Source: Escherichia coli (GTDB lineage: Bacteria; Pseudomonadota; Gammaproteobacteria; Enterobacterales; Enterobacteriaceae). Taken from it: a stretch of 64,000 nucleotides of DNA. The notes beneath the pieces are model-generated. The model made no database searches, was not told the origin of the DNA, and saw nothing but the letters and a program-made list of their open reading frames with translations. The stretch lies in the NCBI RefSeq assembly GCF_003334305.1, contig NZ_QOWS01000026.1. The stretch is one strand, 5' to 3'. A program made the translations under genes and the position numbers. Every line of letters starts with the position of its first letter. Position 1 is the first letter of the stretch. Shown here one piece after another: positions 3,971 through 27,289 of the stretch.

Positions 3971-4815
3971 TCTTTCTGCGAATTGAGATGACGCCACTGG
4001 CTGGGCGTCATCCCGGTTTCCCGGGTAAACACCACCGAAAAATAGTTACTATCTTCAAAGCCACATTCGGTAGAAATATCACTGATTAACAGGCGGCTAT
4101 GCTGGAGAAGATATTGCGCATGACACACTCTGACCTGTCGCAGATATTGATTGATGGTCATTCCAGTCTGCTGGCGAAATTGCTGACGCAAAACGCGCTC
4201 ACTGCACGATGCCTCATCACAAAATTTATCCAGCGCAAAGGGACTTTTCAGGCTAGCCGCCAGCCGGGTAATCAGCTTATCCAGCAACGTTTCGCTGGAT
4301 GTTGGCGGCAACGAATCACTGGTGTAACGATGGCGATTCAGCAACATCACCAACTGCCCGAACAGCAACTCAGCCATTTCGTTAGCAAACGGCACATGCT
4401 GACTACTTTCATGCTCAAGCTGACCGATAACCTGCCGCGCCTGCGCCATCCCCACGCTACCTAAGCGCCAGTGTGGTTGCCCTGCGCTGGCGCTAAATCC
4501 CGGAATCGCCCCCTGCCAGTCAAGATTCAGCTTCAGACGCTCCGGGCAATAAATAATATTCTGCAAAACCAGATCGTTAACGGAAGCGTAGGAGTGTTTA
4601 TCGTCAGCATGAATGTAAAAGAGATCGCCACGGGTAATGCGATAAGGGCGATCGTTGAGTACATGCAGGCCATTACCGCGCCAGACAATCACCAGCTCAC
4701 AAAAATCATGTGTATGTTCAGCAAAGACATCTTGCGGATAACGGTCAGCCACAGCGACTGCCTGCTGGTCGCTGGCAAAAAAATCATCTTTGAGAAGTTT
4801 TAACTGATGCGCCAC
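3967..4815 (-). CDS. rhaR: AraC-family activator RhaR
   Basis: Track ORF 3967..4989 is over-extended. A GTG at 4815-4813 gives (M)[30 protein letters not shown]..., 282 aa as I recall for RhaR. It has an N-terminal cupin and a C-terminal double HTH. Confidence 0.9.
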
Positions 4816-23212: not shown

Positions 23213-23431
23213 TTACCATTCCTCGCGCAGCTTACGCTGATATTCGACACCATCTTCCTCACACCCTTGCCAGATGCCAGGAACACTGGTTCTTGCTGTT
23301 TGCGATTGATTTATCAGGTATTGATCTACCGCTTCCCTTAATAGGTCCGCACGAGGAAGATTACGCTGCACCTCGAGATCATCAAGTTGCTTAATCACCT
23401 CATTCGATAAATCGAGTAAAATTCTGCCCAT
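23213..23431 (-). CDS. yiiF: Small ribbon-helix-helix (CopG/Arc/MetJ-like) DNA-binding protein YiiF
   Basis: Track ORF 23213..23455. From the internal Met it reads [39 protein letters not shown]..., 72 aa as I recall for YiiF, with a beta-strand/helix/helix pattern. The start codon is uncertain (23431 or 23455). Confidence 0.8.
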
Positions 23432-23548
23432 ATCTATACCTGCCAGAGAGTTCATAAATATCTCGCCAATATCATTTTTGAATCTATGGAGAGAAAAGTA
23501 CCCTTGCCGAATCTTTAAAGAAAGCTCATTTACGCATCATTTTTTATT

Positions 23549-23568
23549 TTTGCGAGGCGTTTTCCAGA
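23549..23568 (-). promoter_or_regulatory. Conserved 20-bp box, copy 1 (candidate -24/-12 promoter upstream of yiiF)
   Basis: The minus strand reads TCTGGAAAACGCCTCGCAAA, with GG and GC spaced as in sigma-54 promoters. It lies about 118 nt upstream of the yiiF ATG. See findings. Confidence 0.4.
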
Positions 23569-23673
23569 TACGATGTAACAGTTGCAGTTATTATAAGTTC
23601 AAGTAAAACAGCCTTGTATTAATACCAGAATAAGGGCATCTGTTTTTTTATATTCAAGAATGAAAAATTTTTT

Positions 23674-23892
23674 TCATTCCTTATGCTCCTTACACTGATC
23701 ATCAACACCAACTGTCTCACCCCTTTGCCTGCCTCTCTTTGCTTTACGCACCGGAAATTGCTGCCGCTCCAGATATTGCTCAACCGCTTCGCGTAAAATT
23801 GCAGATCGTGAAACCTTACGCCAGCCCCGAAGCTTGTTCAGCCGTTTAATTGCCTCTTCTGATAAATGAAGAAAAACCGTATTCATCGCCAT
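23674..23892 (-). CDS. yiiE: Small ribbon-helix-helix DNA-binding protein YiiE (paralogue of YiiF)
   Basis: Track ORF 23674..23919. The ATG at 23892 is preceded by aaggtgg. It reads MAMNTVFLHLSEEAIKRLNKLRGWRKVSRSAILREAVEQYLERQ..., 72 aa. Confidence 0.82.
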   Translation of the reverse strand: MAMNTVFLHLSEEAIKRLNKLRGWRKVSRSAILREAVEQYLERQQFPVRKAKRGRQRGETVGVDDQCKEHKE

Positions 23893-23987
23893 TACCACCA
23901 CCTTACATATATTACTCATTAATGTATGTGCGAAAATTACGCCGGAAAATCATTTAAAAAAAGCGGATTTTTGCATGTTGTTTTGTT

Positions 23988-24007
23988 TTTGCGAGGTGTT
24001 TTCCAGA
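23988..24007 (-). promoter_or_regulatory. Conserved 20-bp box, copy 2 (upstream of yiiE)
   Basis: The minus strand reads TCTGGAAAACACCTCGCAAA, about 96 nt upstream of the yiiE ATG. The flanking AACTGCAAC is also shared with copy 1. Confidence 0.4.
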
Positions 24008-24496
24008 AATAATAAGAGTGTTGCAGTTGTTTCATTTATTACTCAAAAATGGTTTAGTTATCGCCCAGGATGAGTTATGGATGCTATGAATATATTATAT
24101 TCAGGGATGTTTATTTTTTGATTGGATCTTTATTTGCATAATCTGAATGGTGTACCCGAAAAATGTCAGCATCCTAACAGCACCCGGATTTAAGGTGAAA
24201 TTAATCATCCATCACAGACCGGTCAGTACTGCCACCAACCGGTCTTTACTTGTTCATCGTTATAATTTTGTTGGTAACAGTTCGGGAAACAAGGAATTCC
24301 TTCCGGAACCCCCCGGTATCATCCGATAGCATTGACGTCAATCATCAGCGCGACGATGAGTTTTTTTAATCGCATCATAGGGTGGCGACGTTCAGCACGA
24401 TTACGGGTCATAGCAAAACTCCTGGGCAGGCGACCACTATGCCGCTTTCACAGGAGTTCTGAATGCTAGTGCTTTCTGTATGGCATAACCATGCCT

Positions 24497-24787
24497 CTAA
24501 CGGTTAAGTGCTTGCAGCACATGTTGCGGATCATTGGCAATCGCTCGCAGCAAAGCCTTTGCAGGCCCGGTCGGTGAACGTCGCCCCTGCTCCCAGTTAC
24601 GCAACGTGTCTACGCTTACAGAAATAAGATCGGCAAATTTAGATTGTGACAACCCTGAAGCGCGGCGTATTTCTTTGATTTTCATAGCATCAACTTCAAA
24701 AGTCCGCGAAGGCTGTCGCGTTCCTTCAATAATTTCATTCATCTGGGCCATGCTGTGAGTCAACCGCTCAAAAAGTGCCTTATCCAT
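24497..24787 (-). CDS. XRE-family HTH antitoxin (HigA-2 type)
   Basis: 96 aa. IKEIRRASGLSQSKFADLISVSVDTLRNWEQGRRSPTGPAKALL is a Cro/C1-type HTH. Its ATG directly abuts the stop of the upstream toxin ORF (TGGTAAATG). Confidence 0.8.
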   Translation of the reverse strand: MDKALFERLTHSMAQMNEIIEGTRQPSRTFEVDAMKIKEIRRASGLSQSKFADLISVSVDTLRNWEQGRRSPTGPAKALLRAIANDPQHVLQALNR

Positions 24788-25099
24788 TTACCACCTCGTA
24801 TTTAACAACCGGAGCATTGCTTTTTCCTGGGGAGACAGATCATCTTTAATACCCTTACGATAAATAAGCAGTAATCTGATCTCATAATGTTTAACCTGAT
24901 GAAAGTAAATAACCCTGACACCAGCACGTTTCCCCTTTCCTCCTGAAACCCATCGAACCTTTCTTAACCCACCAGTTTCAGGTATTACCTCACCATAGTC
25001 AGGATTCAAGGCCAGGAAAAACTGAAAACGACTGAATTCATCGTCGGTCAGCAGTTTTTGAACATCTTCAGTAAAAATTTCCGTTTCGATGAAGAGCAT
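24788..25099 (-). CDS. RelE/ParE-superfamily toxin (HigB-2 type)
   Basis: 103 aa, MLFIETEIFTEDVQKLLTDDEFSRFQFFLALNPDYGEVIPETGGLRKVRWVSGGKGKRAGVRVIYF.... The pattern resembles Vibrio HigB-2 as I recall it (GGLRK.R...GKGKRGG.R.IY). The toxin-first gene order is typical of hig loci. Confidence 0.75.
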   Translation of the reverse strand: MLFIETEIFTEDVQKLLTDDEFSRFQFFLALNPDYGEVIPETGGLRKVRWVSGGKGKRAGVRVIYFHQVKHYEIRLLLIYRKGIKDDLSPQEKAMLRLLNTRW

Positions 25100-25136
25100 A
25101 ATTATACGCCATTGGCTTAGAGTAACAATCCTTTTT

Positions 25137-25153
25137 GTACGTCATTGACGTAC
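25137..25153. promoter_or_regulatory. Perfect palindrome, candidate antitoxin operator
   Basis: gtacgtca-t-tgacgtac has 8-bp arms and lies 38-54 bp upstream of the toxin ATG. Confidence 0.45.
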
Positions 25154-25220
25154 CCTTGAAACCACTAGCTTACTGATAGTGCTCCAGCAAAACCACGTCT
25201 CTGCCGGGTTTGTCTTTAGA

Positions 25221-25240
25221 TTTGCGAGGCGCTTTCCAGA
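25221..25240 (-). promoter_or_regulatory. Conserved 20-bp box, copy 3 (upstream of the toxin gene)
   Basis: The minus strand reads TCTGGAAAGCGCCTCGCAAA, about 122 nt upstream of the toxin ATG. Confidence 0.35.
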
Positions 25241-25327
25241 TTTTTCACGCCCGTGAATTTCCCTGTATCCATCCAGCAAAAACGGGTGTATAAGACTGTA
25301 CATTCATACAGCAAAATAAGTTCTACT

Positions 25328-26236
25328 ATGGCACTGGAAAAAGGAATTGCAGAGTTAGTCGAAAAGTTTATCGCTGCGGGTCGCCCCTCATCGCGTCAAC
25401 AAAGTATTGCGCAGCGCAGGGAGGGCTATATCGCCAGCGCTGTCCTTGCGGGTGAGACAGAAACGCGGGTAGATATTCAGACTATCGAACTTGAAGGGAT
25501 GACCTTACGAATAGTGTCGCCGCTGAATGCCCCGACATTACTCCCGACGATAATTTATTACTACGGTGGCTGTTTTGTTAGCGGCGGGTTCGCAACTCAC
25601 GACAACCAGCTGCGCCAGTTAGCCTATTACGGGCAATGTCGGGTTATTGCCGTCCAGTATCGGCTGGCACCGGAACATACTTTCCCCGCCGCCCATGATG
25701 ATGCGCAACGAGGTGCAGAAATAGTCTGGCAACACGCCGAACGACTCGGCGTTGATAAACAACGTATAACTCTTGCCGGTGACAGTGCGGGCGGACATCT
25801 GGCGCTGGTAACTGCTTTGCGATTAAAGCGTGCTGGCGAGTGGCAACCGGCACAACTCATCTTAATTTATCCTATGCTTGATGCGACTGCGCATTTCGAA
25901 AGCTACATACGCAATGGTCACGATTACATCATCACACGCGACACTTTACTGAGCGGCTTTGAGATGTATCTGCCAGGCATTGAACGCAGGCATCCTGAAG
26001 CCAGCCCTCTTTGGCGCGATGATTTCAATGGCTTGCCACCTGTACATATCATTACCGCTGAATACGACCCACTTTGCGATGAAGGTGAAGCGTTGTATCA
26101 CCGCATGACAGGGCAAGGAGTGCAATGCACCTGCCAACGCTACCTTGGCGTTATCCACGGATTTTTTCAGTTAGGTGGTATCAGCGAGGCCGCGCGATCG
26201 GCACTACGGGATGTTGCCTGGAGAGCGGGAAGGTAA
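25328..26236 (+). CDS. Alpha/beta-hydrolase, hormone-sensitive-lipase family (family IV esterase)
   Basis: Track ORF 25253..26236 has a GTG start. The ATG at 25328 (MALEKGIAELVEKF...) gives the usual ~80 aa before the oxyanion-hole block. Motifs present are GDSAGG (nucleophile elbow), EYDPLCDEG (Asp) and GVIHGF (His). Confidence 0.8.
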   Translation: MALEKGIAELVEKFIAAGRPSSRQQSIAQRREGYIASAVLAGETETRVDIQTIELEGMTLRIVSPLNAPTLLPTIIYYYGGCFVSGGFATHDNQLRQLAYYGQCRVIAVQYRLAPEHTFPAAHDDAQRGAEIVWQHAERLGVDKQRITLAGDSAGGHLALVTALRLKRAGEWQPAQLILIYPMLDATAHFESYIRNGHDYIITRDTLLSGFEMYLPGIERRHPEASPLWRDDFNGLPPVHIITAEYDPLCDEGEALYHRMTGQGVQCTCQRYLGVIHGFFQLGGISEAARSALRDVAWRAGR

Positions 26237-26251
26237 CTTCGGACCTGGGCC

Positions 26252-26284
26252 CTGAAAAGGTTTTCAGATTGAAAACCTTTTCAG
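26252..26284. terminator. Bidirectional hairpin between the convergent esterase gene and yiiD
   Basis: ctgaaaaggttttc-agatt-gaaaaccttttcag has a perfect 14-bp stem. Confidence 0.7.
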
Positions 26285-26299
26285 TCAAGTAAAACGCCC

Positions 26300-27289
26300 C
26301 TACTCTTCTTCGTTCCCGCCCTCTTCATACGGGCCAAATGGCTTCGCGGGCAGAACGATATACGTGCCTTCAAACACTGCACCCGGCGTCTCGTCGCCAA
26401 AGATTTCAACTTGCATCTGCACCCGTGCTTTTCGTCCGCGCGCCAGACGGTCGAGATCGCCGCTTAAGGCACCAAGGTCGGCTATCGCATGAGGTTTACC
26501 GCTAATCGGCTTGCTGTAGCGGATATGCGCATCCGCCAGAATAATCGTTCCGCCGAGATGGCGTTCGCGCAGCATCAGCCAGATAAGCCCCCAACCGGTG
26601 AGCGTCGCCAGCGAGAATAAACTCCCGGCAAACAGCGTATGGTGCGGATTCTGATTGCCGGTTTCCGGCATGGTGGTGATAAATTTTTGCCCGGTATATT
26701 GTTGAATGCGCACGCCCATTTTTTCGCTTAATGGAATGTGTTCATACCACGCCTGTTGCAGCTGGGCGCACCAGTCACCGCGATGCAGAATATCATCCAG
26801 AGTGGCAACGGGTTTAATCATCAAAAAATGGCGAATCGGCGTGGTAGTTGGGGTGGTGATCTCCCCCTGATTAATGAATCCCAGCTTGGCGAAAAACTCC
26901 ACCGCGTCTTCACGGGCGCTACAGGTCACGCGCTTAACGCCTTCCTGACGCGCCACCGACTCCAGGGTCATCGCCATCAGCGTTCCTAACCCTTTGTCCT
27001 GCACGTCGGGATGAACGGCCATAAAGCGAATGGACGCTTCATTGTCGGCATTAATATACAATCGGCCTACCGCCACCAGATTACCCTGCTCGTCGACGAC
27101 CATCTGGTGATGCGCCATCGCATCCCACGCGTCGCGTTCCGAACCTTTTGGTTGATGCAGGGGCTTACGCAACATTTCCCAGCGAAACTGATAGTAACGC
27201 TCTAATTCTTCTTCTGTTTGTGGAACCCGAAGGTGATACATAGCGATACTCTCTCTTGTTTCCCGTGACAACCCTGGAAGCTGGCTCAT
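26300..27289 (-). CDS. yiiD: GNAT acetyltransferase / hotdog thioesterase fusion protein YiiD
   Basis: 329 aa. The N-terminal GNAT domain reads [31 protein letters not shown], and the C-terminal half is thioesterase-like. YiiD has been reported as a malonyl-ACP decarboxylase (my recollection). Confidence 0.9.

Follow-up and report, generated by a model that had tools for sequence, protein, structure and literature searches.

We analyzed a stretch of 64,000 nucleotides of Escherichia coli DNA (contig NZ_QOWS01000026.1 of assembly GCF_003334305.1; hereafter, the window), in which a toxin–antitoxin (TA) pair of the HigB-2/HigA-2 type and the gene of a family-IV carboxylesterase were located between yiiE and fabY (yiiD). 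It is likely that these are two independent units of ordinary kinds, which have a common divergent control region of 228 bp and are both old residents of the interval between fdhE and fabY in Enterobacteriaceae. The data obtained in this analysis concern homology, conservation of catalytic residues, synteny, conservation of regulatory motifs, and presence/absence counts. The initial annotation of the sequence had described the segment as small, rarely characterised mobile cargo; this description was not supported, since the esterase is syntenic and has a native G+C content, no fewer than six further genera have the TA pair at this position, and the Salmonella orthologues are named and partly characterised.

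A synteny scan with one genome per species yielded 36 loci with a recognisable esterase orthologue. In 35 of the 36 loci of other species, the esterase gene was located between fdhE, accompanied in some loci by a yiiF homologue, and the fabY–dtd–yihY genes. The genera possessing it include Klebsiella, Citrobacter, Kluyvera, Kosakonia, Enterobacter, Lelliottia, Raoultella, and Salmonella. Identity values were 70–82% for the esterase versus 88–93% for the proteins encoded by the flanking genes. The G+C content of the esterase gene (0.51–0.54) equalled that of the flanking core genes; it was 0.41–0.43 in the toxin gene and 0.36–0.41 in the yiiE/yiiF region.

The TA pair was found between fdhE/yiiF and the esterase gene in E. 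albertii, a Kluyvera genome, two Klebsiella species, and Yokenella; Salmonella enterica and the Enterobacter cloacae complex also have it at this site. In Cronobacter, it was present beside fdhE without the esterase, and in some Salmonella it was located beside a degraded esterase gene. The toxins of these genera have a uniform identity of 68–74% to that of the window. Outside Escherichia, 31 of the 36 esterase loci lack a TA pair; the TA pair and the esterase are therefore independent units. The proposal that the TA pair is coupled to the hydrolase was thus not upheld, as each occurs without the other outside Escherichia. In a metagenome-assembled enterobacterium (L016, positions 4580–4760), fragments of the antitoxin (residues 1–24 and 54–95) and the operator palindrome were found, and the toxin gene was gone; this represents a case of TA decay in place. 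The simplest reading of these distributions is that both units are old residents of the site which underwent repeated losses; this is clearest for the esterase.

Counterparts of both units, the esterase and sehCD, have already been described in Salmonella, and the locus in the window is an instance, in E. coli, of an arrangement already known from enterobacteria. The Salmonella TA pair was named sehCD (STM4032.2N–STM4033), with a single gene, STM4032, between sehCD and sehAB (PMC3868539, retracted); its other designations are SL3979–SL3980 and, for STM14_4847, 'higB-2'. SehCD has been counted among the functional toxin/antitoxin pairs of Salmonella (PMC4366850). The pair of the window resembles sehCD in its position beside fdhE, divergent orientation relative to the esterase, toxin-first gene order, and the presence of the operator palindrome; a Salmonella toxin encoded at this site shares 68% identity with that of the window, and the antitoxin is 87% identical according to tblastn. 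In contrast to Salmonella, fdhE and the TA pair are separated in E. coli by the paralogues yiiF and yiiE, and the second module, sehAB, is lacking on the far side of the esterase. STM4032.2N was also reported to be 72% identical to an E. coli HigB (PMC3868539, retracted), and automatic annotation already names the E. coli genes "Toxin HigB-2 / Antitoxin HigA-2" (PMC10304320).

In the window, the open reading frames (ORFs) of the toxin (24788–25099, 103 aa) and the antitoxin (24497–24787, 96 aa) form a toxin-first bicistronic operon on the minus strand, in which the toxin stop codon TAA abuts the antitoxin ATG. The ORF list and the sequence agree with the initial annotation in this respect, and the PDB and Pfam matches agree with its family assignments (HigB-2 toxin, HigA-2/XRE antitoxin, and family-IV esterase). 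The esterase coding sequence (25328–26236, plus strand, 302 aa) is divergent from the TA operon, the two being separated by the 228-bp region. Its start codon, ATG at 25328, is used by the Prokaryotic Genome Annotation Pipeline (PGAP)/RefSeq and is invariant across genera; a longer ORF starting from GTG at 25253 was rejected on these grounds. The fabY gene is convergent with the esterase gene, with its stop at 26300 and a gap of 63 bp between the two. The features of the locus are as follows (strand is given where assigned):

24290–26299: segment unmatched in K-12 (blastn of the window against NEB10-beta, L002)
24417–24522: ~105-bp repeat unit, spanning the hairpin downstream of the TA operon and the final 26 nt of the antitoxin coding sequence
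24414–24461, minus strand: probable TA terminator hairpin followed by UUUUG (inverted repeat, fold)
24497–24787, minus strand: HigA-2/SehD-like antitoxin (Pfam, NCBIfam, and PDB matches)
24788–25099, minus strand: HigB-2/SehC-like toxin (phmmer against HigB-2 in PDB)
25105–25119: imperfect palindrome TACGCCATTGGCTTA (sequence; conservation beside the toxin start)
25137–25153: perfect palindrome GTACGTCA-T-TGACGTAC (sequence; conservation across TA loci)
25221–25240: third copy of a 20-bp box, TTTGCGAGGCGCTTTCCAGA (exact repeat count)
25289–25294, plus strand: −10 hexamer of the esterase gene, TATAAG (TATAA nearly invariant in the 18-genus alignment)
25296–25311: LexA box CTGTACATTCATACAG (motif search, orthologous promoters)
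25328–26236, plus strand: family-IV carboxylesterase, orthologue of Salmonella STM4032/'nlhH' (Pfam, PDB, motifs, synteny)
26252–26284: perfect hairpin with a 15-bp stem (inverted repeat, fold)

The most informative regulatory feature of the locus is the LexA box CTGTACATTCATACAG (25296–25311), which the initial annotation had missed. It begins 2 nt downstream of TATAAG, the −10 hexamer, and ends ~14–16 nt before the ATG of the esterase gene. In an alignment of upstream regions from 18 genera, a nearly invariant TATAA was followed directly by an invariant LexA box of the CTGTATATCCATACAG type. The motif CTG(T/G)-N8-ACAG was present at the equivalent position in all 36 of the 36 orthologous loci, 24 of which contained a strict match.

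In Salmonella, the divergent genes nlhH (STM14_4846) and higB-2 (STM14_4847) have one common LexA box, located 13 nt and 184 nt from their ATGs, respectively (PMC8072944). Nalidixic acid induced nlhH 15.1-fold and higB-2 8.05-fold, and an nlhH::gfp fusion was on in ~0.8% of unstressed cells, this subpopulation being gone in lexA(Ind−) and recA (PMC8072944). The spacing in the window is near that of Salmonella: the LexA box is 14–16 nt from the ATG of the esterase gene and ~195 nt from that of the toxin gene. The esterase of the window resembles Salmonella STM4032/STM14_4846 'nlhH' in being a family-IV esterase encoded between the TA pair (or fdhE) and fabY, with the LexA box just upstream of the ATG; the S. 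enterica orthologue (L034) is 70% identical. It differs in the oxyanion motif, which is HGGC there and YGGC in Escherichia, and in the weaker ribosome-binding site (RBS) of the E. coli gene. The esterase gene would be transcribed from a sigma-70 promoter with the LexA box directly after its −10 hexamer. The conserved box and the Salmonella data suggest that it would be off in unstressed cells, being repressed by LexA, and induced by DNA damage. In Salmonella, higB-2 may rise because the distant LexA box acts on it directly, or else indirectly, via antitoxin turnover. In strain SSGNw1 (L004, 2690–4574), an ISL3-family element, ISEc53, carrying a ClbS/DfsB gene was inserted inside the esterase LexA box; its 8-bp duplication ACATTCAT corresponds to window positions 25300–25307, and the esterase is cut off from its promoter.

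The toxin matched the structures of Vibrio cholerae HigB-2 in PDB over residues 2–99 (phmmer, E = 1.5e-19, 73.6 bits). Its residues R49, R62, Y80, and K82 align identically with R51, R64, Y82, and K84 of VcHigB2, which were established by mutagenesis as the active site of HigB-2 (PMC5416850). The XRE helix-turn-helix (HTH) domain of the antitoxin is located at residues 37–74 (Pfam HTH_3, E = 7.5e-10). Residues 31–89 match HigA-2 in PDB (E = 1.8e-8), and the N-terminal 30 residues have no detectable similarity. The pair resembles V. cholerae HigB-2/HigA-2 (PDB 5JA8, 5JA9, 5JAA, and 8A0X) in the toxin (~45% identical by eye), with its four catalytic residues, GKGKR-type loop, and IYF/IYY chameleon strand, as well as in the toxin-first operon and the C-terminal XRE HTH domain of the antitoxin. 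However, it occupies a conserved enterobacterial chromosomal site, whereas the Vibrio pair belongs to the superintegron, and the closest solved structure to the antitoxin is not HigA-2 but Agrobacterium Atu1735 (E = 1.3e-10). The antitoxin also narrowly passed the NCBIfam NadS model (60.7 bits, the cut-off being 60). The sole mention found in the literature for 'NadS' together with antitoxin was that of PGAP annotating a nadS gene in K-12, and no papers were found by the RefSeq protein accessions of these genes.

By homology, the toxin is predicted to be a ribosome-dependent endonuclease with a RelE-like active site, cutting mRNA in the A site of the ribosome. A strong Shine–Dalgarno sequence, AGGTGG, precedes the antitoxin gene and is located inside the end of the toxin gene; no Shine–Dalgarno sequence was recognisable for the toxin gene itself. 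The antitoxin, presumably made in excess from this strong RBS, would neutralise the toxin via its N-terminal segment, and its C-terminal XRE domain may repress the operon at the palindrome 25137–25153 and perhaps also at 25105–25119. The only sigma-70-like site for the TA operon was TTGTTA-16-TATAAT (25101–25128, minus strand), ending 1 nt before the toxin ATG. Among complete E. coli genomes, the operon was full-length in 2636 and, in 2210 of these, at least 99% identical; among the strain variants, L005 has a frameshifted toxin gene and H31 an IS1 insertion.

The perfect palindrome 25137–25153 is located ~40–55 nt upstream of the toxin ATG and is kept in the TA loci of Salmonella, Enterobacter, Cronobacter, Klebsiella, Kluyvera, and Yokenella. 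It is the obvious candidate for the operator of HigA-2/SehD. The imperfect palindrome 25105–25119 overlaps the TATAAT abutting the toxin ATG and is kept beside the toxin start in all TA loci; it represents a candidate second antitoxin operator. In the 18-genus alignment of esterase upstream regions, the upstream palindromes were confined to the TA-bearing loci.

The 20-bp box TTTGCGAGSYGYTTTCCAGA occurs in exactly three copies in the window (23549–23568, 23988–24007, and 25221–25240), none being expected by chance; the initial annotation had correctly placed the third of these exact copies in the divergent region. The copies precede the leftward genes yiiF, yiiE, and higB-2 by 94, 96, and 122 nt, respectively, and in many genera the box is conserved ~105 nt ahead of the ATG of the esterase gene. 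With up to four mismatches allowed and without correction for phylogeny, it was present near the esterase gene in 14 of the 14 loci having a leftward yiiF or TA gene and in 7 of the 22 esterase-only loci, where it was visibly decaying. In Cronobacter, which has the TA pair without the esterase, a related sequence, GGAAGGGGGCTCGCAGAA, was found ~120 nt upstream of the toxin gene. Since the box is retained together with leftward genes and decays in esterase-only loci, it seems to serve the leftward genes and not the esterase. On the minus strand, it reads TCTGGAAAGCGCCTCGCAAA, with conserved TGGAA and TCGCAAA around a variable spacer (TGG-N9-TCGCA). Sigma-54 promoters have a GG-N10-GC layout at −24/−12, and the box fits it, with GG and GC at the canonical spacing. 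It is doubtful, though conceivable from this likeness, that the box is a sigma-54-type promoter for yiiF, yiiE, and higB-2, lying opposite an esterase gene that is under LexA control as an SOS gene throughout the family; if this were true, the control region would join two stress inputs on the TA pair and the esterase. A search for yiiF together with RpoN in the searchable literature yielded nothing, so that the sigma-54 idea has no literature support.

The yiiF (23213–23455) and yiiE (23674–23892) genes themselves are tandem paralogues encoding ribbon-helix-helix proteins. Their upstream 100-nt regions (23493–23592 and 23932–24031) are 71% identical, and both have weak NCBIfam matches (E ~0.003–0.005) to PRK11675, 'LexA regulated protein'. 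Other genera mostly possess yiiF only, or neither yiiF nor yiiE.

The esterase had a strong Pfam match to Abhydrolase_3 (232.6 bits, E = 5.3e-69), and its closest PDB matches among esterases were at about E = 1e-50. The catalytic Ser is located in GDSAG (TLAGDSAGGHL), Asp in DPLCD, and His in HGF (GVIHGF); the protein is predicted to be a cytoplasmic family-IV carboxylesterase. It resembles the esterases of family IV, or the hormone-sensitive lipase family (Est8, 4YPV; PestE, 2YH2; EST2, 1EVQ; and E. coli Aes, 4KRX), in the Abhydrolase_3 fold and the GDSAG, DPLxD, and HGF motifs. It differs from them in the oxyanion motif: the canonical HGGG is replaced by HGGC in this orthologous group, as found in all other genera scored, and by YGGC (IYYYGGCF, residues ~77–80) in E. 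coli and E. albertii only. The esterase belongs to neither the LipP1 nor the Aes subfamily, because both scores were below the NCBIfam cut-offs (238.8 vs. 350 and 139.9 vs. 389, respectively). Compared with E. albertii, the ratio of nonsynonymous to synonymous divergence (dN/dS) of the esterase gene was 0.13–0.28, calculated from small counts. An AAGG-type RBS was found elsewhere and is weakened in Escherichia. The YGGC motif and the weak RBS hint at reduced function, which would fit the loss of the gene in half of the species.

The TA pair was found in 2637 and the esterase gene in 2640 of 5426 complete E. coli genomes, each in a single copy and on the chromosome. Among the carriers are ATCC 25922, JJ1887 (an ST131 strain), and strains labelled as Shiga toxin-producing E. 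coli. K-12 has neither the TA pair nor the esterase gene, and ~49% of the genomes carry them; it is thus not the case that K-12 and most E. coli possess these genes, and the view of the segment as accessory was borne out. The gap between yiiE and fabY is ~850 bp in K-12 versus ~2.4 kb in the window, and not ~0.6 kb in K-12 as the initial annotation had given. Homology with K-12 (NEB10-beta, blastn) extends up to 24289 and sets in again at 26300; in K-12, the interval is taken up by 474 unrelated base pairs. Of the suggestion that the segment is either an insertion here or a deletion in K-12, the deletion in K-12 was supported; the clean indel was not, since 474 bp replace the segment.

The locus has several forms among E. 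coli strains. In form D (e.g., NA3664, L005), the TA pair and the esterase gene are followed by an ORF of 617 aa and fabY, and direct repeats of ~105 bp flank the TA pair and the esterase gene; the second copy of the repeat, after the esterase gene, is located at L005 6289–6391 and is 85.8% identical. Form C (L006) contains a single copy of the repeat and the 617-aa ORF without the TA pair and the esterase gene, and looks like the product of a deletion between the direct repeats. The locus of K-12 corresponds to form C minus a further ~2 kb: it keeps the first ~100 nt of the 617-aa ORF, and this remnant (L002 2369–2485), annotated in RefSeq as a truncated pseudogene, makes up the 474-bp filler. 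In form A, that of the window, the TA pair and the esterase gene are kept, and the 617-aa ORF is lost. In an evenly spaced sample of 30 matches, 13 were of form A-like, 2 of form D, 3 of form C, 11 of K-12-like, and 1 of another form. Forms A, C, and D, together with that of K-12, suggest that the carrier state is ancestral in Escherichia and that several independent losses took place. The fullest form is yiiF–yiiE–(small ORF)–TA–esterase–(617-aa gene)–fabY. The lineage of the window lost the 617-aa gene, and other strains lost the TA pair and the esterase gene, apparently between the ~105-bp repeats. K-12 is a nested-deletion derivative of the latter, which then lost most of the 617-aa gene too.

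Many strains have the single 617-aa ORF (L006 1689–3542, minus strand) in the space that separates the TA/esterase site from fabY. It had no match in Pfam or PDB, and in RefSeq it is divided into a 'transposase' and a partial hypothetical protein. The PGAP label "transposase" was rejected as evidence of mobility, as it refers to a part of this ORF, which matches nothing in Pfam or PDB. The ORF contains a sequence, CKSAKDRT, which we take to resemble the CX5R active-site motif of the SopB/IpgD inositol phosphatases. A stretch of ~394 bp that NA3664 and M22546 have between yiiE and the antitoxin gene is missing from the window (at 24355–24358; L005 4017–4410); its absence truncates the gene of a 92-aa hypothetical protein (coding sequence L005 3912–4190), which had no Pfam or PADLOC match. 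Strain M22546 (L003 846–2459) has an extra DUF6708 gene and a gene of a 246-aa hypothetical protein between the yiiF and yiiE homologues. These extra genes make the fdhE–fabY interval a hotspot of small insertions and deletions.

Two hairpins border the genes. The one downstream of the TA operon (24414–24461; −31.5 kcal/mol, z −2.3) is followed by UUUUG and is the probable terminator of the operon. For the other (26252–26284), the initial annotation had proposed a terminator with a 14-bp stem shared with yiiD. The stem is indeed perfect, although of 15 bp (arms 26252–26266 and 26270–26284, with a 3-nt loop), and folds with −22.5 kcal/mol on one strand and −24.2 kcal/mol on the other (z about −4). 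The hairpin has no flanking U-tract and was not called by the terminator scan. It was found in Escherichia only, being absent from the other genera and from the K-12-type loci examined.

We consider it unlikely that the segment is a mobile accessory islet of 1.8 kb, consisting of a TA pair and hydrolase cargo, which was inserted between core genes in this lineage. Its carriage by only ~49% of complete E. coli genomes would agree with such an event, but deletions explain the state of K-12. The ~105-bp direct repeats flanking the TA pair and the esterase gene in L005 also speak for an islet; however, they flank this segment in other strains only, and the edges in the window have no integrase, IS element, or flanking repeat, as noted initially. 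The toxin region is AT-rich (G+C 0.41–0.43), and related toxins (~71–73% identity) are encoded on Salmonella plasmids, while the esterase is syntenic in ~35 other species of Enterobacteriaceae with a core-like G+C content, and the TA pair is located at the same site in at least six genera with a uniform identity of ~70%. The divergence from E. albertii, which is far lower in the segment than in fabY and points to recent lateral exchange, is also in favour of an islet; against it, no near-identical copies were found across genera outside Escherichia. A plasmid origin of the TA pair was rejected separately: the matches of at least 99% in the plasmid collection were megabase-sized and evidently chromosomes, and the true plasmid homologues did not exceed 73%.

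It also appears quite unlikely that the TA pair of E. coli has lost its function and persists as a decaying relic. The toxin gene has no Shine–Dalgarno sequence and a −10-like hexamer abutting its ATG, it is frameshifted in L005, H31 carries an IS1 insertion, remnants of a TA pair are decaying in L016, and the retracted study found the Salmonella toxin to be only moderately toxic in E. coli. Nevertheless, all four catalytic residues have been preserved, 2636 genomes have a full-length operon, which in 2210 of them is at least 99% identical, the operator palindrome is kept across genera, and the Salmonella orthologue was reported to be functional (PMC4366850). Very unlikely is a single three-gene system, e.g., an anti-phage or stress module with the esterase as effector or sensor. 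The near-perfect co-occurrence in E. coli (2637 vs. 2640 genomes), which would be expected of one system, is explained by joint loss in one deletion. The common divergent control region and the co-induction by nalidixic acid in Salmonella also speak for a joint function; on the other side are the 31 of 36 esterase loci outside Escherichia without the TA pair, the TA pair of Cronobacter, which has no esterase with it, that of some Salmonella, where the neighbouring esterase gene is degraded, and the absence of any PADLOC defence model matching the toxin and the esterase. Anti-phage defence as such was rejected, since the PADLOC scan gave generic HTH matches for the antitoxin only and none for the toxin or the esterase.

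Several points weigh against two independent old residents with the functions proposed above. Synonymous divergence (dS) from E. albertii (L007) was 0.33 for fabY, 0.058 for the esterase gene, and 0.015–0.03 for the TA genes; the low values of the TA and esterase genes relative to fabY indicate their recent lateral exchange by recombination within Escherichia. The motif CTGT-N8-ACAG occurs once in the 64-kb window, with 0.62 occurrences expected by chance, and this lone count is not significant by itself; the case for LexA therefore rests on conservation across genera and on the Salmonella data. The data on SOS induction and toxicity come from Salmonella only, and we infer their carry-over to E. 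coli. The equation of the E. coli genes with STM4032, STM4032.2N, and STM4033 rests on position, gene order, spacing, and reported identities, and the study that named sehCD (PMC3868539) was retracted and was used here for gene names and layout only. The PF06296 score of the toxin (17.6 bits) was under the gathering threshold of 27, and the toxin matched no NCBIfam model; many RefSeq genomes call it "hypothetical" for this reason. Its homologues at 70% identity carry precomputed PF06296 matches. Since the −10 hexamer of the TA operon abuts the toxin ATG, either the promoter would be located further upstream or the translation of the toxin would be unusual. Finally, the Escherichia esterase, with Tyr in place of His and a weak RBS, may be less active or less expressed than its orthologues.

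To our knowledge, no function in the DNA-damage response is known for esterases of this group. The segment missing from K-12 resembles an inserted islet, yet it is K-12 that represents the degraded state, and an easy mistake is thus corrected. About half of E. coli strains are predicted to possess an SOS-regulon esterase that is invisible to SOS maps based on K-12, and in the carrier strains a toxin of the HigB-2 type is predicted beside that esterase.

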